A stretch of 44,197 nucleotides of DNA from a virus (IMGVR_UViG_2563366948_000003), one strand, 5' to 3'. Shown: positions 1,711 through 17,476, counted from the first letter of the stretch. Numbers and translations: made by a program. Notes: generated by a model not told the origin, from the letters alone.

Positions 1711-2829
1711 TCAGGCCACGTATTCCGGTTTCATATCCGCCAGGGTGATGCTGAATTGATCGTGCAGTTCATCGCCTAAGTGACGCTTTGAAGATGCAAG
1801 CATGCGCTCGGCTTCAGCGAACCGTTCGGCTGCATGCGGCTCGTCGGGCTGGGGCAGGGATTTAATAGCCTCCTCAACCTTGTTGCGTGCATCCACTAGG
1901 TAATAACGCTTTACGGCTTTGTTTTTCAGCTCGGTGAATAGTGCGGATCCCAGCGTAGCTTTCGCCGTTTCAATGTCGGCACGCAGCGATTTGGCGCTAT
2001 CCACGTCCTGAGCAGATTCGATGCGTTCGCGGAAATCATCGGCAAGAGAGTCGGCATTTACCGACGATTCCTGTGTGCTTTGCGTGGTTGTGACGGTGTC
2101 ACCTGAGATATCAGCCAGGCTAACGCGTTGCGGCGTTGGGTTGATCTCTTTTTCTGTGCGCTGTTCAATCTCATCAGGGGTGTACACACCAAGAACAACT
2201 GCAGGGCAATACAGGCGCGCCCAGTATTTGAGTGCCAGATAAGCGATCTGCTGTTTCGGGTTTGATACCCAAAGTGGAGAATTACGTGTGATTACGCTGG
2301 AGAGGAAAACAGGCTCTCCCCAGGTGATATCACTTTCACCGCGAATAACGGCACCTACCCGTACCGACAGTCCTTGTTCATCAGCACTTTCCCAACCGCG
2401 TACCATTTCTTTCTTGTCGTACGTCCCGCCACCTTTCGCAGGCTTTTTAACGGTTATCTCGCGGCTGCTGGCACATTTCGACCAGTCGCCCTCGTACTCA
2501 TAGTGAAAGCGGCCAACGATGGCGTTTGAGCTGGAGATCACCGCATTAACCAGTTGCGCTTCGTATCCCAGGACACCGTTAACCAGGTGCGTCTTTTGCG
2601 CCACGGCGTAAGGGTTCATACCCCACTGCATCGCCTGCATGATGATGGCCATGCAGTCTGCCGGATTGCCGCGGAGGTGCTCAGGCACCGTTACGGCTGC
2701 CTGTGCCATCAACCCGGCGACAGACTGAAGCTGGGTTAAAGCCTGCACGTTGAAAATGGCATTGCTGGCTGAGATCGTGTTTGGAGTCTGCTGTTCAGCG
2801 GTTACGATATTCGTGTTTTCCATCATCAT
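1711..2829 (-). CDS. recT: RecT-family single-strand annealing protein
   Basis: 372-aa ORF immediately downstream of the RecE-like gene (6-nt gap). Central region (NPADCMAIIMQAMQWGMNP...VLGYEAQLVNAV) follows the RecT pattern (CDTMSFVSAIVQCSQLGLEP...IIGYRGMIDLA in E. coli RecT, recalled from memory). RBS AAGGGGA upstream of an ATGATGATG start. Confidence 0.6.
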   Translation of the reverse strand: MMMENTNIVTAEQQTPNTISASNAIFNVQALTQLQSVAGLMAQAAVTVPEHLRGNPADCMAIIMQAMQWGMNPYAVAQKTHLVNGVLGYEAQLVNAVISSSNAIVGRFHYEYEGDWSKCASSREITVKKPAKGGGTYDKKEMVRGWESADEQGLSVRVGAVIRGESDITWGEPVFLSSVITRNSPLWVSNPKQQIAYLALKYWARLYCPAVVLGVYTPDEIEQRTEKEINPTPQRVSLADISGDTVTTTQSTQESSVNADSLADDFRERIESAQDVDSAKSLRADIETAKATLGSALFTELKNKAVKRYYLVDARNKVEEAIKSLPQPDEPHAAERFAEAERMLASSKRHLGDELHDQFSITLADMKPEYVA

Positions 2830-2834
2830 TCCCC

Positions 2835-5800
2835 TTATGCCTGAGTACGCAGCGCTTCAAGGCGGCGCAGGTCGAAGTCGTTCAGTTCGTCGGTGTAGTC
2901 AGCAGTGATTGGCGCTGGCCATTCACCTGTGTCGAATCCGGTTGCGATATTGCGCATCGCTTTGCGGTACTCGAGCATACCCAGCTCCAGTAGTTCAGCG
3001 GATGCCTCGATGATGGCGATCCAGTGGTAGTTCTCGTCTTTGTTGACGAAAATCCAGAAGAACTGATCCAGCGCTGCGGTTTCGCAGTACATAGCCGCGC
3101 TCAGGTGATAATCACGTTCAATAATTTCCCGGTGTAGCCTGGCGCGCAGGCTTTCCTGCTTAACATTCCACATGCTGATGGTTTTCAGGTCAGCACCGAT
3201 ACGCACGCCGTCTAGGTCGATCTCAAGGTCAGGGCGCACACGAACTTCCAGTCCCGTCTCCTCGTCAAAGCCAAAGTAGCTCACCTCAACGGCGCGGCTC
3301 GGGTGGGTTAGCAGCATGCCTGCGGTCGGGTGCGAGAGCAGTGCTGACTGAATTGCCTGCGCGGTGGCAAGTTGCTGGTGGGTAACCAGCACTTTCCCTT
3401 CCGGGTTGTTGCGCCACGCATCGAGCAGCTCGTCGGCGAACACTGCATCTGGTTTGACTGCCTTCACGGCCTGAATCAGATCGGCCTTCGTGCCAGAGAC
3501 TTTCAGCGGTTGCAGCTTCTGAGCTTCCTGCGCGACTAGGTCAGGATTGATAATCGCAAGTTGTTCGAGTAGTGCGTCGCGGCTGCCGCTGGTTTTAATC
3601 TGCGCTGGCAGGGTGGCGTTGTACTCTTTGATGCACGCCTTCATTGCTGTTGCTGTCTTCTTCTGATCTGCATCGATACGTTGGAATTCGGCTGGCAGCG
3701 CCATATAGTTCTGCGCCGTTTCATCCAGGCTAGCGCCCAGCGGCACCAGCGCTGGCAGGGTGGCGTTGTATTCATCCAGCAAAGCTTTGATATCGTCTGC
3801 GCTCAGTTGCGCTGGCAGGCTGGCGTTGTACTCATCAATAAACGCGCGGATCGTTGCCGTGGTGGTAAATGCACCTTCCGGAATTACGGGTTCAACGCTA
3901 AATTCTTCATCGAGCTGTTCTGGCTGCAACGCCAGCGCATGTACCAGGTTTCCCATGTCCAGCACTGAGGAGCGCTCTTTGACGATGGTTTTCTCAACGT
4001 GGCGCGCATTGAAGTACATCAGCGAAACGCGCGCATCTTTTACCTGGGTGGAACTGATGCCGTTGGCAGCGTGGTAAACCTCGTTCGGCAGACCTTCATA
4101 GCGGCCAGGTTCGAAGTAAGCAGGGTACACAACACCCGGTTCGTCAGATTGAGCTTCTGGCTCGGTTTGGGCCGCAACCGGTTCGGTTTGGTTTACAGAA
4201 TCGCTGTTTTGGCTAACAGAATCCGCATTCTGGCTCACATCGGCTTGCTGGCCGGTATGTGACTCTTCACCAGTTTCCAGACTGCTTTCGCCTGACTGCA
4301 CTTCATCACCAGCCTGTTCTTCATCACTGACAGTTTCTTCCATCTGCACATTGCTGGTGGTTTCCTCATTAAGTGGTGAACGGTTATCTGTTTGTGTTTG
4401 TTGATCGCCCATCAGGCCATCAATGGAGAATACGCCGTTGCCCATGTTGGCGATTTGTGGCTGTTTAGCAGCTGTTTTCTGCTCTGCAGCGACCTGCTCA
4501 TTAACCTCATTTTCCCAGCTGACGTCCGACGCATGACCAGCATCAGCCAGCGTTTCTTCTGAGGGGTTTGAGTGGTCATTTTCGGTTAGATTGGCATTGA
4601 TATATGCCCGCAACCGCCCAGGAAAGTTAACCAATTCTGATGATGTGCCGCGGATGAGTGCAAAGATGGCGGCGCGTGAATAGTCCAGGATGCCAGCGGT
4701 TTTGCGCAGCGCCTCAGACCATTCGCTGAATGGACTTTCTTTCTTGCTGACAATCTCTTTAGCGCGACGGTAGACCCCACCAGGTATGTCGTAGATATTG
4801 AAATCCATTGGCAAGGTGGCCAGCGCAATTTCAACATCCAAAGTGTCCAGTGTGTGGACATAGTCGGTATTACGATCGGTCTTATTTCCACCGCCAGCAT
4901 TGGTTTTGACGTCAGTACGTTGAATCTGCGCAACGCGGTTACCTTTCTGCCATTCCTTGACCAGCAGGCCACGGTCGATGTAATCAGTGTTGAACCACAC
5001 AGTCAGGAACTGGATAACTGTTGCCAGCTCCGGTTTTTTACCGTCGACAGGGAAGACTTTCTTAACAGCATTCACGACTTTATGAATATCGTGCTCAATG
5101 GCTTTTTTGAATGCTTCCACATTCTCAGCAGCCAGCAGCAGGTTCTGGATGTACGTATCATCAGTGTCCATCTCAAGGCGGACAATCTCGTTTTTCTGCC
5201 CAGCGTCGATGTGATAGAGATATTCACCATCACCGATGAACTGAGCCAGTACGCGCTGACGGAATGGCAGGGTGGCTACGACGATCAGGTTCGGCTGATC
5301 TGGCTGCTGAGATTGTTCTTCGGTACCGACTTCATCACCAACGCTGGTGGTTTCAGTTTTGAGCAGAGGAAACCTTCCACTGCGCCAGTCTTCAACCAGT
5401 TGATTGCGATCACCTGCTTCTGCGTTCACCCAGTCAGACATGAAAGCAGCGATCACTTCAGGTCCATGCTCTTCACCCTGTTCGAAGATGTCTTTAATCG
5501 CCTGAATCATTTTCCACTCAGCATTAAGACTGAGTTCGCCAACTTCAGGAACATCATTTTTAACCTGCAGCAAGTTCTGGAGATAGGTATTGCTTTCGTC
5601 CAGTGACATTTCGCTGGCAGTCAGCTGCTGCTCTTTAGTGACGTGAGTCTGGTACTTATCGCTCATCAGATGGAAGGCAAAACGGACTGCTGGAGTGCGG
5701 TTTTCTAACGATACATTCTCGTCAGAAGTCGCTACTTCATCTGTATTTTTTACATCGGCAGGGATAGTGGTGACAACGTCGCCAGCGGCCTTTGGCAGCC

Positions 5801-6065
5801 AGGTGCGCCCGTCGTCCTGCAGTTCGTAACGATCACACCAGGTGAAATCAACTTCACCTTCTTCCGGCAGGTCGTCATATACCGGGAAATCGGTGCGGAT
5901 TGGTTTGGCATAATCTTTACCGCGGCCAGTTTCTTCAATTCCGGCTTCTTCCAGTGCCACATCGAGTTGGAGATTGGCGCGCGCTACACTTTTCGCAGTG
6001 AACCAAATCACTGCATCTTTCTTGCCAGACTTCTGACTGGCTTTTATCAGATGGAAAAATTCCAT
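2835..6065 (-). CDS. recE: RecE-like exodeoxyribonuclease VIII (large multidomain protein with C-terminal PD-(D/E)XK nuclease)
   Basis: Long ORF (1111 codons in the track). Likely start is the internal ATG at 6065, preceded by an AGAGGA RBS. C-terminal ~250 aa carry a nuclease-like D...E/D-x-K context (RPDLEIDLDG...DLKT). Position upstream of a RecT-like gene matches Rac-type recET modules. Contains three tandem ~20-aa coding repeats. Confidence 0.6.
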   Translation of the reverse strand: MEFFHLIKASQKSGKKDAVIWFTAKSVARANLQLDVALEEAGIEETGRGKDYAKPIRTDFPVYDDLPEEGEVDFTWCDRYELQDDGRTWLPKAAGDVVTTIPADVKNTDEVATSDENVSLENRTPAVRFAFHLMSDKYQTHVTKEQQLTASEMSLDESNTYLQNLLQVKNDVPEVGELSLNAEWKMIQAIKDIFEQGEEHGPEVIAAFMSDWVNAEAGDRNQLVEDWRSGRFPLLKTETTSVGDEVGTEEQSQQPDQPNLIVVATLPFRQRVLAQFIGDGEYLYHIDAGQKNEIVRLEMDTDDTYIQNLLLAAENVEAFKKAIEHDIHKVVNAVKKVFPVDGKKPELATVIQFLTVWFNTDYIDRGLLVKEWQKGNRVAQIQRTDVKTNAGGGNKTDRNTDYVHTLDTLDVEIALATLPMDFNIYDIPGGVYRRAKEIVSKKESPFSEWSEALRKTAGILDYSRAAIFALIRGTSSELVNFPGRLRAYINANLTENDHSNPSEETLADAGHASDVSWENEVNEQVAAEQKTAAKQPQIANMGNGVFSIDGLMGDQQTQTDNRSPLNEETTSNVQMEETVSDEEQAGDEVQSGESSLETGEESHTGQQADVSQNADSVSQNSDSVNQTEPVAAQTEPEAQSDEPGVVYPAYFEPGRYEGLPNEVYHAANGISSTQVKDARVSLMYFNARHVEKTIVKERSSVLDMGNLVHALALQPEQLDEEFSVEPVIPEGAFTTTATIRAFIDEYNASLPAQLSADDIKALLDEYNATLPALVPLGASLDETAQNYMALPAEFQRIDADQKKTATAMKACIKEYNATLPAQIKTSGSRDALLEQLAIINPDLVAQEAQKLQPLKVSGTKADLIQAVKAVKPDAVFADELLDAWRNNPEGKVLVTHQQLATAQAIQSALLSHPTAGMLLTHPSRAVEVSYFGFDEETGLEVRVRPDLEIDLDGVRIGADLKTISMWNVKQESLRARLHREIIERDYHLSAAMYCETAALDQFFWIFVNKDENYHWIAIIEASAELLELGMLEYRKAMRNIATGFDTGEWPAPITADYTDELNDFDLRRLEALRTQA
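3600..3870. repeat. Three in-frame tandem direct repeats inside the RecE-like gene
   Basis: DNA motif GCGCTGGCAGGGTGGCGTTGTA(C/T)TC occurs three times (~3604, ~3752, ~3810). It encodes repeated peptide EYNA(S/T)LPAQ/L. Confidence 0.7.
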
Positions 6066-6203
6066 GTGAGATCCTCTTTTTTGAGTGTTAGAATCCCCGG
6101 GCCAGAGATAGCGCCCATTGGATGTTTTTTGGTTTGGTATAAATTCCGGTGTAACTTTGGTCGGTGGCACCGGACGTGAATCCCGCCTTGCGCGGGGTTT
6201 TCG

Positions 6204-6727: not shown

Positions 6728-7017
6728 ACCTACTGCGCGTTAATATCACCACCTCATTCCGGTTTTCGTATGCCCCGGACGGCTACTTCGTGGGCTCAAT
6801 GCCTGGGTGGTTCGTGGTGCGTCTTGGTGAGTTAGATTAAATCACTGGTTTATATATATGTCAACTTAAGGTTAGTGTTAATTGTAAATCTGAGGTTTAT
6901 GTGGCTGGGTTTTGTGACACGTCTGCAGAATCGCAGGCAAAAAAAATCCCGACGCTAAGGTCGAGATCGGGGACTTCGTGGCTGGGTGTTGGCGGCTGAG
7001 ATGGTGGGTGAGGGTGT

Positions 7018-7048: not shown

Positions 7049-7474
7049 TTATTTTCTAGATGATGTTGGGGACCAAGGTAACGTTATAGTATCTAACACT
7101 GTGTTTTTGAACATATTTTCAAAAACTGTTTTTGTACATACATATACATAATTTTCAAAAAACCAAGCATTTTCATTATAAAAATCCTCAGTTACTTCTT
7201 CATCGAGGTCACACTCAAATGTTAGTGTCAAGGTAGCCTCTGCCTTGAACAATACATCCTCACCATCATCAAAATCTTTTTTATCGCGAGGGAAACCAGT
7301 TATCGATGGCTTAACTTCAATAAAGAGCCAATTTCCATCTTCATCTTTTTGAGGAACAACGTGATGCTCAGAAAATTTTAAGCTATATTTTCCGCCTTCA
7401 GAATTATCACTGTCGTCGATAAAAAGGGAAGAACCCTCGAGATCAAATCCCTTAAAGCGAATTTTATCAAGCAT
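7049..7474 (-). CDS. Acidic protein translationally coupled to hicB; candidate SecB-like chaperone
   Basis: 141-aa product from the ATG at 7474, which overlaps the hicB stop (TGATG). Acidic and aromatic-rich. N-terminal KIRFKGFDLEGSS loosely resembles SecB QRIYTKDISFEAP, and C-terminal FFENYVYVCTKTVFENMF...LDTITLP resembles SecB [25 protein letters not shown]. Similarity judged by eye only. Confidence 0.4.
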   Translation of the reverse strand: MLDKIRFKGFDLEGSSLFIDDSDNSEGGKYSLKFSEHHVVPQKDEDGNWLFIEVKPSITGFPRDKKDFDDGEDVLFKAEATLTLTFECDLDEEVTEDFYNENAWFFENYVYVCTKTVFENMFKNTVLDTITLPWSPTSSRK

Positions 7475-7932
7475 CAATGTGGCACTCCGTTGTCTACTGA
7501 AACTTCCCAATAGGTCTCTTCTGTACGTCTACGGGATGAGAAGAAAGTAACTTCTCTAACATCCCTCGGTTTTTCAAAGTGGTAGTGAACCTCTTTTTTC
7601 CCATTAACTGACTCACTGACAGCCTGTTTTACATAATCGTTTAAAGTCATATTCTTAGCTTTAGCAGCTAAATATGCTTTTTTATGCAGGGATTCACCTA
7701 TCCGGATGTTAAACGAACCACTCATTGTCTTATCTGGAGATTTTCCTATCTCTTCACAAGTGGAGAGGTAATCGTCCACGGCCTCCTCAAAGGCTGCACG
7801 GAGTTCTGCAACCGTTGCACCCTCATAAGTGACGAGATCATTTATACATTCGAGTTTTCCATGCATCACCCCATCTTCAAATGAAATGCTGGAGCTACCA
7901 TAGTAACCTTTGTATTTCATCAAGTTATTCAT
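7474..7932 (-). CDS. hicB: HicB-family antitoxin with ~40-aa C-terminal extension
   Basis: HicB-like core (YKGYYGSSSISFEDGVMHGKLECINDLVTYEGATVAELRAAFEEAVDDYLSTCEE...SGSFNIRIGESLHKKAYLAAKAKNMTLNDYV) followed by an aromatic-rich tail (HYHFEKPRDVREVTFFSSRRRTEETYWEV). Start overlaps the hicA stop. The track ORF begins 15 nt upstream at 7947. Confidence 0.8.
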   Translation of the reverse strand: MNNLMKYKGYYGSSSISFEDGVMHGKLECINDLVTYEGATVAELRAAFEEAVDDYLSTCEEIGKSPDKTMSGSFNIRIGESLHKKAYLAAKAKNMTLNDYVKQAVSESVNGKKEVHYHFEKPRDVREVTFFSSRRRTEETYWEVSVDNGVPH

Positions 7933-8179
7933 GATCATCAATCTCATCTAACAGCTGTTTAACTTCTTCCAAGACGTACCTTTTGAGGGTGTTTTCAGGA
8001 TGGGGCTCATGAAAAATGACCAATCTATCAACACGTTGGTTGTAAAATTTACGGCCAGAACCTCGTTTAGCATTCAAAAGCTTGAAGCCATACTGGTTCA
8101 TGAGAGTAACGAACTCATCCCAAGTAAAATTTTTGGGTAAGCCGTCTAACTTTGACTTTAGCTTTTCCTTTCTTCCCAC
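7925..8179 (-). CDS. hicA: HicA-family mRNA interferase toxin
   Basis: 84-aa protein with HicA/YcfA hallmarks (FVTLMNQYGFKLLNAKRGSGRKFYNQRVDRLVIFHEPHP). First gene of the operon, overlapping hicB. Confidence 0.8.
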   Translation of the reverse strand: MGRKEKLKSKLDGLPKNFTWDEFVTLMNQYGFKLLNAKRGSGRKFYNQRVDRLVIFHEPHPENTLKRYVLEEVKQLLDEIDDHE

Positions 8180-8339: not shown

Positions 8340-8438
8340 TTAGCCGCTGGGTGTTGCGTATCCATCGATGATAAACCATGCCATAAACCCCATAGCTACG
8401 ATGAACACCAAGATCGGAAACACTATACCAATTCTCAT
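8340..8438 (-). CDS. Small hydrophobic peptide (32 aa), putative single-pass membrane protein
   Basis: Hand-translated: MRIGIVFPILVFIVAMGFMAWFIIDGYATPSG. AGGGA RBS-like motif 7 nt upstream of the ATG. Lies between the repressor-like gene and hicA. Below the ORF-track size cutoff. Confidence 0.3.
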   Translation of the reverse strand: MRIGIVFPILVFIVAMGFMAWFIIDGYATPSG

Positions 8439-8483
8439 GATTTTATCCCTGTCTACCCATGCTTCCTGGGCACCAGCGGCTCG

Positions 8484-8876
8484 TTACTCGGCATCGCCCT
8501 TAATCCGCCGCCCCATATATTTGGCGTACAGATCGTCGAGTTCCTTCAGGCGCAGTGATACCGCCTTAAGAACTCCACCCTGATCCTCTTCGGGGAGTTG
8601 ACGGAAAAGGCGTAAAAGCTCTTGCTCATTACTTTTTAATCCATCATTGGGCCCTATATCCTGCCCCAAAACCCAGGCTAAATTCACACCAAGCGCATCA
8701 GCTAGCTTAAGTGCGGAGTTTTTCCCAATAGTTCCCCTTACAAACCAGTTGTTAACCGACTGGGATGTTACGCCACAAATTCTGGCCAGATCTGCTTTTG
8801 AGAGATGTTTACTATTCGTGATCTCATTGAGTCGTCTGACCTGTGGGTTATCTGATTCGTGTGTATTTTTTCTCAT
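8484..8876 (-). CDS. XRE-family HTH DNA-binding protein (repressor-like, paralog 2)
   Basis: HTH (LSKADLARICGVTSQSVNNWF) plus a helical C-terminal region (LRLFRQLPEEDQ...LKELDDLYAKYM). No S24 peptidase domain. Likely start at the internal Met (MRKNTHE) at 8876. Confidence 0.7.
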   Translation of the reverse strand: MRKNTHESDNPQVRRLNEITNSKHLSKADLARICGVTSQSVNNWFVRGTIGKNSALKLADALGVNLAWVLGQDIGPNDGLKSNEQELLRLFRQLPEEDQGGVLKAVSLRLKELDDLYAKYMGRRIKGDAE

Positions 8877-8895
8877 GTACAAGAGTATCACTTAG

Positions 8896-9279
8896 CTAAT
8901 CAGCATCGCCCCTGATTCTGCGATTCATGTACTTGGCATATAGTTCATCGAGTTCCTTCAGACGCAGGGAGAAGATCCTTATCATATTCTGCTGTTCTTC
9001 TTCCGGTAACTGTCTGTAGAGCTCCAGAATACGTTGTTCATCAGGCTTAAGACCATCCTTCTCTCCAACATCCTCACCGAGTAGCCAGGCGACAGAAATA
9101 CCAACAGCGTCGGCTATGGCCAGTGCCGATTTCTTACTAATCACGCCTTTTTTGAACCAGCCGTTTACGGCCTGAGGGGTGACTCCAGCTATTCTTGCCA
9201 TGTCTGCTTTGGTAACGCCGCGATCAGTGATCTCAGTAAGGCGCTCCACCAGAACGAGGTTGGGTTCTTCTTTTCTCAT
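8896..9279 (-). CDS. XRE-family HTH DNA-binding protein (repressor-like, paralog 1; CI-like position)
   Basis: Paralog of the downstream gene (VTKADMARIAGVTPQAVNGWF; LELYRQLPEEEQ...LKELDELYAKYM). Divergent from the cro-like gene. Start at 9279 (MRKEEPN); the longer track ORF is probably an over-extension. Confidence 0.7.
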   Translation of the reverse strand: MRKEEPNLVLVERLTEITDRGVTKADMARIAGVTPQAVNGWFKKGVISKKSALAIADAVGISVAWLLGEDVGEKDGLKPDEQRILELYRQLPEEEQQNMIRIFSLRLKELDELYAKYMNRRIRGDAD

Positions 9280-9381
9280 ATGGTCATTGTAAATATTTGG
9301 TTTATGCACGCAATAAATCCAAAGTTTGCATGAAGTATAAATCTGTGGTTTACTTCTGCTATCAATAAGCAGGAGAAGCAC
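9280..9381. promoter_or_regulatory. Divergent switch region between repressor-like and cro-like genes
   Basis: ~100-bp AT-rich intergenic region between divergent HTH genes with imperfect dyads (TTTATGCACGCAATAAA, TTTGCATGAAGTATAAA). Promoters and operators are inferred from position only. Confidence 0.4.
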
Positions 9382-9600
9382 ATGTCCGCACTCGATAAAG
9401 CAATTAAAGCCGCTGGCTCTGCCAGAAAGCTCAGCATCGCGCTTGGTGTGACGAGTATGTCTGTAAGTCATTGGAAGAATCGTGACCAAGGGATCGTCCC
9501 GCCAAGCTATATCTTCCCGATTTTCAAAATGACAGGCGTAACCCCCCACGAGCTGCGCCCTGATCTCTATCCAAATCCCACTGACGGATTACCAAAGTAG
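9382..9600 (+). CDS. Cro/YdaS-like HTH regulator
   Basis: 72-aa protein with HTH (ARKLSIALGVTSMSVSHWKNR), divergent from the repressor-like gene. Resembles the YdaS/Cro family. Confidence 0.7.
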   Translation: MSALDKAIKAAGSARKLSIALGVTSMSVSHWKNRDQGIVPPSYIFPIFKMTGVTPHELRPDLYPNPTDGLPK

Positions 9601-14217: not shown

Positions 14218-14868
14218 ATGAGCGACAACCAGTTAGCACCTTGTTGGGAATTTCAGCCTTACCTTGCTGAAAGCAATGTTCGTCAGTTGTTAGCGGAAAT
14301 TGCTAATGTACTCGAGCAATTGTACTACCACAAACACACACTGGACAGTAACTGGTCCGAAGGTGTAAGGGCTTATGATTGGGTCAGAAATCATTTGATT
14401 CAAAGTGAAGGGACACTGCCGGGTCTGGAAATGGTTTCGAAGGGACTGGATTATGTGGTTGCGTTAAATAAAGTGCCGCTGCAGTTCTCCAAAGATTGCA
14501 TTAATAACCCGAAGAAGAAGCATCGCCTTCTTCGAAATAGGGTGGAGCATGAGCAACTTTCATTGTTCGGTGAAACTGAAGCCGAGCAAGATATTACATG
14601 GCGGATCATCGCCGAACCATTTTTATCCGATGAAGAAGATGGCGAGCTGGAATCAACATTGCCTCGCTGGGAAGTGGCTTTAGTTGGGTTTAACGCATAT
14701 GGTGCCCAGATCAGTATGGTTTCACACCAATCTACTGCTTCAGCGCCGCTTATGTCTCTTGATACCAACACTCTTCCGGATGAAGCTGAGATTGGCAAAG
14801 CCTCTCTTCGCCGCCGTAAAAAAGATCAAGATTTGGATGTGAGCAGTAATGGAACATCAAGTGAATGA
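14218..14868 (+). CDS. Hypothetical protein (216 aa), first gene of a two-gene cassette
   Basis: AT-rich ORF with no recognisable motif. Overlaps the downstream HTH-peptidase gene by 20 nt. Acidic C-terminal half. Confidence 0.5.
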   Translation: MSDNQLAPCWEFQPYLAESNVRQLLAEIANVLEQLYYHKHTLDSNWSEGVRAYDWVRNHLIQSEGTLPGLEMVSKGLDYVVALNKVPLQFSKDCINNPKKKHRLLRNRVEHEQLSLFGETEAEQDITWRIIAEPFLSDEEDGELESTLPRWEVALVGFNAYGAQISMVSHQSTASAPLMSLDTNTLPDEAEIGKASLRRRKKDQDLDVSSNGTSSE

Positions 14869-15952
14869 CTTTGCTGAGTATCGTGGGGATAAGCTCAAAT
14901 TAGCCAGAATGGCTGTTGGGCTCTCCTGCGAAGAGTTAGCGGAGAAAATTGGTAAAACAAAACAATTCGTTAGCAAATTGGAAAAAGGGTTTAAACCATC
15001 AGAACAGTTGTTAGAATTAATCTCATCTGCGCTGATGATTAAATCTGATTTCCTATTTACTGAACGAAAATATGCTTTAGAAAGCGATGTTTGCCATTTT
15101 CGGAGTAAAAAATCGAGAACCCAAACATTAACCAATAGTGTTCTGGCAAGGGCGGAGATTCTTAACATTATAATCTCTGCCGTTGAGGGAGAAATCGAGT
15201 TTCCTGATGTTTTCATACCTGAGCACCCCGGTGCTGAATTGCTGACTCCAAATGATATTGAACGTGTAGCGGAAGACTGCAGAAGAGCATGGAACTTAGG
15301 GCTGGGACCTATATCCTCAATGGTCAAACTGGCTGAGAGTTTGGGGGTTATTGTTGCTCATGTGACAGGAGTGGATGACCGCGTAGATGCTTTTACTGTT
15401 CATAACAACAGGCCAGTAATCATCCGAAATAACGTCAAAAAGAGTATATGCAGATTCCGATCAGATTTAGGTCACGAATTGGGGCACTTGGTTATGCACG
15501 AAGGTATAACCACAGGAGATAAAGTGACTGAATCGCAAGCGGATCGTTTTTCAAGCGCGTTGCTAGTTCCTCGATTGTCCTTTATTAAAGAGTTTCCCCG
15601 TATACGAGGAAGACAGTTCGATTGGAACGCCCTAGTTGAGTTTAAGCTTCGGTGGAAGATTAGTCTTAAAATGTGCATTTACCGAGCAACAACTCTAGGC
15701 CTGCTGACGCAGGAGCAGGCAAGAACAGGTTATATGCATTTGAACTCTAAAGGATATACGAAAGTTGAACCAGGAGATGAATTTATTCGCCCGGAAGAAC
15801 CGAGTATGTTAGCTGAGGCGATTGAAATGCTGGATGATGCAACATGGATGAGCATTCTCATGAAAACTGGTTTAAGCCAGGAGTTGGTTAGGGAGTTATT
15901 CTCGGTAAACCGCCCACTGTCAAATCCAAGAAATCTACTTCAACTGGTTTGA
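14849..15952 (+). CDS. Fused XRE-HTH / ImmA-IrrE family (M78) zinc metallopeptidase
   Basis: N-terminal HTH (LSCEELAEKIGKTKQFVSKLEKG). C-terminal domain with the HExxH zinc motif (LGHELGHLVMHE) in ImmA/IrrE (COG2856/DUF955) context. Confidence 0.8.
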   Translation: MEHQVNDFAEYRGDKLKLARMAVGLSCEELAEKIGKTKQFVSKLEKGFKPSEQLLELISSALMIKSDFLFTERKYALESDVCHFRSKKSRTQTLTNSVLARAEILNIIISAVEGEIEFPDVFIPEHPGAELLTPNDIERVAEDCRRAWNLGLGPISSMVKLAESLGVIVAHVTGVDDRVDAFTVHNNRPVIIRNNVKKSICRFRSDLGHELGHLVMHEGITTGDKVTESQADRFSSALLVPRLSFIKEFPRIRGRQFDWNALVEFKLRWKISLKMCIYRATTLGLLTQEQARTGYMHLNSKGYTKVEPGDEFIRPEEPSMLAEAIEMLDDATWMSILMKTGLSQELVRELFSVNRPLSNPRNLLQLV

Positions 15953-15967
15953 CTCAAAGCTTGTAAT

Positions 15968-15991
15968 AAACCCGCTATATGCGGGTTTTTT
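15968..15991 (+). terminator. Rho-independent terminator
   Basis: AAACCCGCTATATGCGGGTTTTTTC: stem CCCGC/GCGGG plus T-run, immediately after the HTH-peptidase stop. Confidence 0.7.
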
Positions 15992-16114
15992 CTTTCTGGT
16001 AGCGCGCTGTGGTAACGCTGTGCCTCCAGCGCTCGCTGAGGCGCTGGTGCGTGCTAATTTGCCGGAGCTTTGTCAGCAGAAACAAATAGCGGCGTAATAA
16101 AACATTGCTAATTC

Positions 16115-16141
16115 AACCCGCTACGGCGGGTTTTCTTTTTT
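16115..16141 (+). terminator. Second, near-identical rho-independent terminator
   Basis: CAACCCGCTACGGCGGGTTTTCTTTTT: same stem as the terminator ~145 bp upstream. Confidence 0.6.
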
Positions 16142-16204
16142 TAATACTGACAGAAAATTAACAATTTGTGCTCTTAAAACGTTGATCATTTCCGTGCATA
16201 GGTA

Positions 16205-16224
16205 TACTGTATAAAAACACAGCA
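16205..16224 (+). promoter_or_regulatory. LexA (SOS) box
   Basis: TACTGTATAAAAACACAGCA matches the CTGT-N8-ACAG LexA consensus (CTGT 16207-16210, ACAG 16219-16222), ~20 bp upstream of the dinI-like start. Confidence 0.75.
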
Positions 16225-16242
16225 CATGCAATGGAGGCTATT

Positions 16243-16476
16243 ATGAAAGTTGAATTAACCATTGATCGCATGAAAGAACTTCCTAAAGGCGCAGTACCAG
16301 CACTGGAGAAAGAACTGCTTAAGCGCCTGAATGATCACTATGACAATTGCAGGCTCACAATCCGCCGTGCCGGGTCCGATGGGTTAAGTGTTTTTGGTGG
16401 TGACAAGGACGATAAAAAGAAAATTGAATCAATCCTCCAGGATACCTGGGAAAGCGCTGACGACTGGTTTTATTAG
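16243..16476 (+). CDS. dinI: DinI-family DNA-damage-inducible protein
   Basis: MKVELTIDRMKELPKGAVPALEKEL...ESILQDTWESADDWFY closely parallels E. coli DinI (MRIEVTIAKTSPLPAGAIDALAGEL...SEILQETWESADDWF, recalled). GGAGG RBS. The track ORF starts 12 nt upstream. Confidence 0.85.
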   Translation: MKVELTIDRMKELPKGAVPALEKELLKRLNDHYDNCRLTIRRAGSDGLSVFGGDKDDKKKIESILQDTWESADDWFY

Positions 16477-16593
16477 AATTGCGCTTAAGGCTGGCGCGCA
16501 TTTTTCAGAATACCGCAATTTGCGTAACCCTCTGATGCTGCTGCCGACAATCTTTAATCGCGTCTGTTAGTCGCTCGAAGGGAGAACATAAAT

Positions 16594-16842
16594 GTGAGTG
16601 ATTCAGCTTTGCAAACGTCAGAAGACAACTGGTATGACATTGTAAGAAGGTCTGACGGCTGCGTGGTGTTTAGCTTTCCTTCATCGGGCAGGCATCTAAT
16701 TTATCGCGTCAATGGCATGGTTTCTATGCGGCCTTTGCTGGATGATGAAGAGGTCTTTACTCCTAATGGTTTTATGCAATTTATCCGCCGTCTCGGCTAC
16801 CGGGTAACACCACCTTCTGATAATATGAAATCAACGGTCTGA
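16594..16842 (+). CDS. Hypothetical protein (82 aa, GTG start)
   Basis: ORF downstream of dinI on the same strand with a GGGAGA RBS. No motif recognised. Confidence 0.4.
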   Translation: MSDSALQTSEDNWYDIVRRSDGCVVFSFPSSGRHLIYRVNGMVSMRPLLDDEEVFTPNGFMQFIRRLGYRVTPPSDNMKSTV

Positions 16843-16876
16843 ACAACCGTAACCTACTGCGCCACGGAGAGAAACC

Positions 16877-17476
16877 ATGGCGCACGAACTACAACTCATT
16901 AAGCAGTCCTCAGGAATTCTGATCCCCGCTACGCCGGAGACCAGCGATATTCTGCAATCAAAAATCAAACTTGGTGCCGTATTGGTAGCCGAATTTCGTC
17001 AGGTGAGGAATCCAGCATTCCATCGCCGTTTCTTTGCGCTCCTGAATCTCGGGTTTGAATACTGGGAACCCACCGGTGGGGCGATTTCTTCCAATGAACG
17101 TAAATTGGTGACCGGGTACGCTAAATTCCTCGCGGCATTTGGTGGAAACGAAGGCGCACTGCTGGATGCTGCCGAGCAGTATCTGGACCGTATCGCCGAT
17201 AAGCGCGCCGGTAGTATCAGCATCTGCAAATCCTATGACGCATATCGTGCATGGGTGATCATCGAGTCTGGCCACTACGACGCCATACAGCTTCCCGACG
17301 GCACCCTTCGCAAACACCCCCGCAGCATTGCCTTTGCCAACATGGACGAAACCGAGTTCCAGCAGCTGTACAAAGCCGCGCTCGATGTTCTGTGGCGCTG
17401 GGTATTGTCCCGGGCATTCAAGGACCAGCGTGAAGCGGAAAACGCCGCATCGCAGCTCATGAGCTTTGCGGGGTGA
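16877..17476 (+). CDS. DUF1367-family phage protein
   Basis: 199-aa protein. N-terminus (LIKQSSGILIPATPETSDILQSKIKLGAVLVAEFRQVRNPAFHRRFFALLNLGFEYWEP) matches the DUF1367 pattern common in lambdoid prophages. Confidence 0.55.
   Translation: MAHELQLIKQSSGILIPATPETSDILQSKIKLGAVLVAEFRQVRNPAFHRRFFALLNLGFEYWEPTGGAISSNERKLVTGYAKFLAAFGGNEGALLDAAEQYLDRIADKRAGSISICKSYDAYRAWVIIESGHYDAIQLPDGTLRKHPRSIAFANMDETEFQQLYKAALDVLWRWVLSRAFKDQREAENAASQLMSFAG

Follow-up and report, generated by a model that had tools for sequence, protein, structure and literature searches.

[quoted passage not shown] In the Gifsy layout a terminator precedes a LexA box that adjoins dinI, and an antirepressor ORF with a non-AUG start lies between the homologs of dinI and irsA (Lemire et al., PMC3121763). 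The antirepressor of Gifsy-1 is GfoA, an experimentally proven, LexA-controlled protein (Lemire et al. 2011, PMC3121763) that binds the repressor GfoR and frees the operator DNA, and whose expression alone induces the prophage in Salmonella (Lemire et al., PMC3121763). LexA binding and induction by damage are known from the Gifsy orthologs, and the equivalent Gifsy dinI genes go up 14- to 23-fold with nalidixic acid. GfoA homologs and a conserved dinI-irsA region in Escherichia have also been reported already (Lemire et al., PMC3121763), so the finding described below is a rediscovery.

The window, by which we mean the whole stretch of 44,197 nucleotides that was analysed, is an E. coli prophage of lambdoid, Rac-like/Gifsy-like type, with an integrase at 1-1194, RecT and RecE at 1711-6170, an immunity region, O/P replication genes, a nin region, NinG, Q and late genes. 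The region around its dinI homolog is 99.9% identical to E. coli strain KL53 and, at the DNA level, 98% identical to phage mEp237. We consider it very probable that this locus (Table 1) serves a Gifsy-1-like, Rac-like lambdoid prophage as its SOS-sensing induction module and works by the LexA-GfoA-repressor route. Every property of the Gifsy-1 GfoA/GfoR system that can be looked for in a sequence is present; the mechanism is already known, and the locus is a near-copy of the Gifsy-1 induction switch. Many Rac-like elements of E. coli are cryptic, and the lineage-specific RosmerTA and HicAB cargo of this one is a sign that the element has been reshuffled, both of which would suit a module left inert in a defective prophage, its box and genes intact and a productive lytic cycle no longer triggered. 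However, the integrase, RecET, immunity, O/P, NinG and Q genes and the long late-gene ORFs of the window are without obvious disruption, and mEp237, whose module is 98% identical, was deposited as a phage genome; an inert relic seems to us highly improbable.

Table 1. Features of the induction module, the adjoining RosmerTA cargo and the immunity region (positions counted from the first nucleotide of the window).
Feature	Position	Strand	Remarks
OL, two operator-like sites TAAATCACTGGTTTA, TAAATCTGAGGTTTA	6838-6899	.	same operator type as OR
Repressor copy 2, 130 aa, accessory paralog	8484-8876	-	62% identity to GfoR (E 2e-51)
Repressor copy 1, 127 aa	8896-9279	-	Pfam HTH only; 59% identity to GfoR (E 3e-43)
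OR, two operator-like sites TAAATATTTGGTTTA, TAAATCTGTGGTTTA	9290-9352	.	between repressor and cro-like gene
Cro-like YdaS-family HTH gene	9382-9600	+	Pfam YdaS_toxin 1.4e-13, P22_Cro 0.0014
RmrT	14218-14868	+	E 2.4e-26
RmrA, HTH + M78/IrrE-like peptidase	14849-15952	+	E 1.6e-106 over full length
Terminator	15968-15988		downstream of RosmerTA pair
DNA-methyltransferase remnant	about 15999-16097		downstream of RosmerTA pair
Terminator-like hairpin + T-run (Rho-independent type)	16115-16132	+	AACCCGC..GCGGGTT, kept in 8/9 phages
Candidate -35 hexamer TTGATC	16182-16187	+	read from sequence; inferred
LexA (SOS) box TACTGTATAAAAACACAGCA	16205-16224	.	core, weight-matrix score and conservation
dinI homolog, 77 aa, first gene of operon	16243-16476	+	Pfam DinI PF06183
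Non-coding spacer, dinI to antirepressor, 117 bp	16477-16593	+	~91% identity to Gifsy-1/-2 of LT2
GfoA ortholog, 82 aa, GTG start	16594-16842	+	77/82 identity to GfoA
DUF1367 protein, irsA homolog, third gene of operon	16877-17476	+	Pfam DUF1367 E 2.5e-91

The presumed operator, TACTGTATAAAAACACAGCA, is a 20-bp imperfect palindrome containing the core CTGT-N8-ACAG (here CTGTATAAAAACACAG, at 16207-16222); it differs at four positions from the perfect palindrome TACTGTATATATATACAGTA and was missed by a search allowing up to three mismatches. On a weight matrix made from 25 E. coli operators known from the literature, and not from a curated file, it scores 23.1 bits, placing it 19th against the 25 known operators and ahead of 18 of them (known range 13.2-27.0). 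By the same matrix the second-best site in the 44-kb window reaches 13.9 bits, 9 bits behind, and the best of 20 shuffles 16.5 bits. TACTGT-N8-ACAG stands at a constant distance from the dinI ATG, which in the window lies 19 bp downstream of the box, in all nine of the divergent phages compared (from Escherichia, Salmonella, Klebsiella and Citrobacter), and the spacer and flanks of the box vary; a fixed box amid variable surroundings would be the footprint expected of a functional operator overlapping a promoter. The site thus has the marks of a gamma-proteobacterial LexA operator, namely the core, a score in the proven range, a position just upstream of dinI and conservation in orthologous loci, and the near-consensus SOS box that the earlier note had reported upstream of a DinI homolog and an 82-aa ORF is borne out by its core, its score and its conservation in the nine phages.

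The TTGA of the candidate -35 element, together with GGTATACTGT upstream of the box, is kept across phages. The putative -10 must then lie within 16203-16210, in the left arm of the box, as either TATACT (15-bp spacer) or TACTGT (17-bp spacer). A strict sigma-70 consensus scan of 15800-17000 called no promoter because the spacing from TTGATC to TATACT is only 15 bp, and the operon promoter is therefore placed here from conservation only. Upstream of all this, the hairpin and T-run at 16115-16132 is predicted to insulate the SOS operon against transcription from farther upstream, and the same element also precedes the Gifsy LexA boxes (Lemire et al. 2011, PMC3121763).

The product of dinI, with which the operon opens, matches the DinI profile over positions 1-63 of 63 (E 8e-26), falls in PHROG 189 (RecA filament binding protein DinI), and in strain KL53 bears the PGAP label DinI family protein. 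The non-coding spacer that follows is, with the 3' end of dinI, about 91% identical to Salmonella Gifsy-1 and Gifsy-2, despite the unrelated ORF that comes next downstream there, and its conservation exceeds that of the coding flanks, dinI included. It contains a weak hairpin with a T-run (16480-16498), a Shine-Dalgarno sequence GGGAG, and an ATG-TGA overlapping the GTG start of the next gene. Its RNA fold is no better than that of shuffled sequence (z 0.36), so no structured RNA is claimed, and Rfam searched at a permissive threshold over 15900-17000 returned sub-threshold chance matches only and no family. A 60-aa ORF (16388-16570) considered as the cause of the conservation was rejected, the compared differences from the Salmonella read-through product P0028 being non-synonymous. 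The spacer may act as a partial terminator, or as a linker at which cassettes are exchanged by recombination. It is absent from SPN3UB and Chris1. A stem directly 3' of the dinI stop codon recurs, in other sequences, in Klebsiella phage ST974-OXA48phi18.2 and in phage PHB10, which hints at a conserved 3' stem or partial terminator.

Lying between dinI and the 82-aa ORF, the hairpin and T-run could limit read-through, and such a terminator-like element directly 3' of dinI is what one would look for if the LexA box controlled dinI alone, as a moron modulating host RecA/SOS, with the 82-aa ORF cut off or otherwise employed and induction proceeding by another route. That the two genes are functionally separable follows also from the deletion of dinI, which is without effect on Gifsy induction (Lemire et al., PMC3121763). 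The hairpin has, however, only six pairs, two of them G-U, and in Gifsy-1 and Gifsy-2, which have the same spacer, substitution of PBAD for the LexA-box promoter made induction dependent on arabinose, that is, transcription read through into the antirepressor (Lemire et al., PMC3121763). No separate promoter was found inside the spacer, and the ORF beyond it is 94% identical to the proven GfoA. We hold a box serving dinI alone to be very unlikely, and take dinI, the antirepressor gene and irsA as a single LexA-controlled operon.

The 82-aa ORF has no Pfam match and belongs to PHROG 340, labelled 'unknown function'. GfoA itself was identified from published primer sequences together with a contig of Gifsy-1 type on which GfoR is encoded as well. 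The gfoA primers of Table S1 encode an N-terminus MSNSALQK and a C-terminus RRLGYRVTPPSD (Lemire et al., PMC3121763), and the window ORF, which reads MSDSALQT...RRLGYRVTPPSDNMKSTV, agrees with them at both ends. With the engineered ATG included, a search of IMG/VR with the gfoA primer gave 0 matches; without the start codon, the 5' primer sequence was found in 37 Salmonella contigs, all of them with a TTG start. One of these, contig L017 of IMG/VR, has a LexA box identical to that of Gifsy-1(14028) and also encodes a protein of 131 aa that starts with MKEKTHQ, ends with EKYMKGRIRTRED and matches both gfoR primers. The window ORF is identical to the GfoA of this Gifsy-1-type Salmonella contig at 77 of 82 positions (94%), which makes it a GfoA ortholog and, by that resemblance, a predicted antirepressor. 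As for GfoA and GfhA, homology goes together with a small non-AUG ORF placed between dinI and irsA, in an operon with a LexA box, and with co-occurrence of a GfoR-family repressor. The earlier note had already named this ORF as one candidate for the antirepressor, and the 94% identity to GfoA, the slot between dinI and irsA and the co-occurrence all argue for it. A description of the ORF as a mere positional analog, based on a BLASTP comparison with GftA of Gifsy-2 (E = 1), was dropped after the primer table showed it to be of the GfoA type.

Its GTG start overlaps ATGTGA (16592-16597), a start-stop mini-ORF, which may keep expression of the 82-aa ORF low; together with the non-AUG starts of the Gifsy antirepressors (GTG, TTG), the overlap may serve to hold down the basal translation of a dangerous protein. 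The AlphaFold2 model of the ORF product consists of four strands and a helix (mean pLDDT 66.5), and Foldseek found no match to this model in the PDB at E <= 0.001.

The third gene of the operon is tied to irsA by the published irsA primer ATGGCGCACGAATTACAACTCATC, which in alignment matches the start of the DUF1367 gene, and for its mEp237 counterpart, gp50, a similarity to STM1020 of Gifsy-2 is on record. The junction on the right of the antirepressor cassette (16843-16880), which reads (G)CCTGAACAACC...TGCGCCAC...CCATGGCG, is kept in eight of eight phages whatever the type of antirepressor, and the stop codon of the cassette falls within its conserved CTGAAC; the junction looks like a module boundary for exchange.

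The immunity region, from which the module is 7 kb distant, encodes two repressors as tandem paralogs, 58% identical to each other, with copy 2 lying 19 bp downstream of copy 1. Both have matches to HTH_3/Phage_CI_repr only, and no S24-like sequence turned up anywhere in the window when it was searched by tblastn with LexA and lambda cI; the reading of 8484-9279 in the earlier note, as repressor-like proteins with an HTH and no S24 domain, thus proves correct. Their size (127 and 130 aa, against about 130-150 aa for the family), their HTH-only make-up and their homology to GfoR place both in the GfoR/GfhR family. GfoR and GfhR were absent from the best 120 matches of a protein search, and GfoR was recovered instead from the IMG/VR contig. 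Copy 1, which diverges from the cro-like gene, is the prophage's own repressor, and copy 2 is in the same lysogenic transcript. That lysogenic block, between OL and OR, also holds HicA (7925-8179), HicB (7474-7947), a 153-aa ORF (7049-7510) and, on the minus strand at about 8340-8450, an ORF for a 32-aa hydrophobic peptide whose counterpart in related contigs is called YoaK-like.

Operator-like sites of the form TAAATnnnnGGTTTA occur four times in the window, against 0.13 expected, as two pairs with a spacing of 47-48 bp, and phages of the GfoR type have the related form TAAAC-N5-GTTTA at the same place. The OR and OL sites fit copy 1, and for copy 2 no operator set of its own was found. Strain KL53 has a single repressor, of the copy 1 type, with HTH and OR identical to those of the window; its N-terminal HTH is that of copy 1 and its C-terminal tail differs. 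The gp39 protein of mEp237 has the reverse arrangement, a different HTH joined to a C-terminal half identical to that of copy 1. This implies, as far as the sequences go, that the repressors are mosaic, with recombination inside the gene between the DNA-binding part and a conserved C-terminal part. The latter (LPEEEQ..LRLKELDELYAKYM) is kept in all repressor variants compared, and we infer that it forms the contact surface for the antirepressor.

Copy 2 has a recognition helix, SQSVNNWFVRG, identical to that of Salmonella GfoR, and in three of the four E. coli contexts shown it is the second member of a tandem pair, no upstream gene having been called in the fourth. Tandem pairs are also found in mEp237 (gp39/gp38), SEN34, two Salmonella IMG/VR contigs and four E. 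coli genomes. One might suppose that copy 2 is non-redundant, either conferring heteroimmunity against GfoR-type phages or soaking up GfoA and thereby raising the SOS threshold for induction, and that the spacer is a dedicated attenuator keeping the antirepressor low relative to DinI, but we regard this combined proposal as doubtful.

ORF and repressor travel together. Among 50,697 phage records a homolog of the 82-aa ORF occurs in 15, a repressor homolog in 25 and both in 13, and among 5426 complete E. coli genomes the ORF occurs in 51 and the repressor family in 56, with the repressor present in all 51 ORF carriers; these counts are not independent events and are inflated by shared ancestry. 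The ORF is at least 97.6% identical throughout, and the linked repressors are 71-100% identical, with different HTH variants. In Salmonella, either of GfoA and GfhA inactivates GfoR as well as GfhR, the repressors of heteroimmune phages (Lemire et al., PMC3121763). By analogy, a constant ORF linked to varying repressors is consistent with a single antirepressor that serves against several heteroimmune repressors, in the way that GfoA serves against GfoR and GfhR.

The other candidate antirepressor named in the earlier note, an HTH-peptidase encoded just upstream of the box, fares differently. With an M78/IrrE-like peptidase domain as well as an HTH, the protein encoded at 14849-15952 might be thought a protease antirepressor of the ImmA kind, cutting the repressors in the manner known from ICEBs1 or phage phi105. 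But it matches RmrA over its full length, the RmrT gene is immediately upstream, adjacent and with overlapping reading frame as in RosmerTA, and the peptidase gene lies upstream of the LexA box, from which it is separated by two terminator-like hairpins and the methyltransferase remnant. RosmerTA is absent from the equivalent position in mEp237, which has the same dinI-ORF82 module, in SEN34 and in the Salmonella phages bearing GfoA. In ImmA/ImmR, moreover, the gene for the M78 protease sits beside that for its repressor; here the sole M78 protein is RmrA, 5.6 kb from the repressors. A protease antirepressor at this position is barely credible, and the earlier suggestion finds no support. On these matches 14218-15952 is taken as RosmerTA anti-phage defence cargo in the nin region, predicted to be no part of the induction switch, which we continue to assign to the GfoA ortholog.

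The overall comparison is closest with Gifsy-1 of S. Typhimurium ATCC14028, which shares the gene order, the upstream terminator, the 19-bp distance from box to ATG, a non-AUG start and an antirepressor of 94% identity, as well as small HTH-only repressors of which GfoR is 59-62% identical to those of the window and related operators (TAAAY-N5-GTTTA). It differs in host, the window prophage being of E. coli, in its TTG rather than GTG start, and in the presence in the window of a second tandem repressor paralog and of RosmerTA cargo upstream of the module. The HTH variant and operator of the window repressor also differ from those of Gifsy-1, from which it follows that the phage is heteroimmune. 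Gifsy-2 and the Gifsy-1 of LT2 (dinI-gftA-irsA, with repressor GtgR) have the same terminator, box, dinI, spacer and junction into irsA, and the same mechanism, but their antirepressor cassette is of another sequence family. BLASTP found no similarity between the 82-aa ORF and GftA of Gifsy-2, which is in PHROG 4847, and hhalign of the GfoA and GftA families gave a weak match (probability 10.8%, E 0.0028), collinear over 57 columns. GtgR does not respond to GfoA (Lemire et al., PMC3121763).

Farther off is Tum of coliphage 186 (also AntC of N15), likewise a LexA-controlled antirepressor with a DinI-like association that binds a non-cleavable repressor. Tum, however, is one 146-aa fusion with the antirepressor in its N-terminal half and the DinI-like part in its C-terminal half, whereas the window has two genes, dinI first; with the two parts separate and in the opposite order, the locus works like Tum but stands outside the Tum family. 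In mEp237 the module is gp48-gp49-gp50, 98% identical in DNA and with an ORF 98.8% identical, and gp39/gp38 repeats the tandem repressor arrangement with a nearly identical copy 2; the N-terminal HTH of gp39 and its operators are different. For the module and repressor genes of mEp237 the annotation gives hypothetical proteins or generic HTH proteins, and no functional study of them was found.

LexA control, the binding of antirepressor to repressor and the release of the latter from DNA are taken here from the Salmonella experiments, and the 94% identity and identical architecture suggest that all of the functional steps operate in the window prophage as well. In the lysogen, host LexA would sit on 16205-16224, overlapping the -10 of the sole dinI-gfoA-irsA promoter, with the terminator shielding the operon. 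After DNA damage, active RecA would bring about the self-cleavage of LexA, and the operon would be transcribed. The GfoA ortholog would then accumulate, bind the non-cleavable GfoR-family repressor and remove it from OR (9290-9352) and OL (6838-6899), and the second repressor paralog would probably be bound by it too. Release of the repressor would activate the cro-like gene, with which the rightward lytic operon begins, so that the rightward cro/ydaS-O-P-Q and the leftward recET-xis-int genes would come on. As the repressor is not destroyed, the switch would in principle be reversible once LexA returns.

No new mechanistic question is opened by this locus, which matters chiefly for annotation. 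Databases enter this ORF and related ones as 'hypothetical protein' (RefSeq/PGAP) or 'unknown function' (PHROGs 340 and 4847), and they belong to no Pfam family, and yet it is these ORFs that would decide prophage induction by DNA-damaging antibiotics. The presence of the module predicts a prophage that is SOS-inducible through LexA, by an induction that is in principle reversible, and whose antirepressor may cross-induce other prophages of the GfoR family residing in the same cell.
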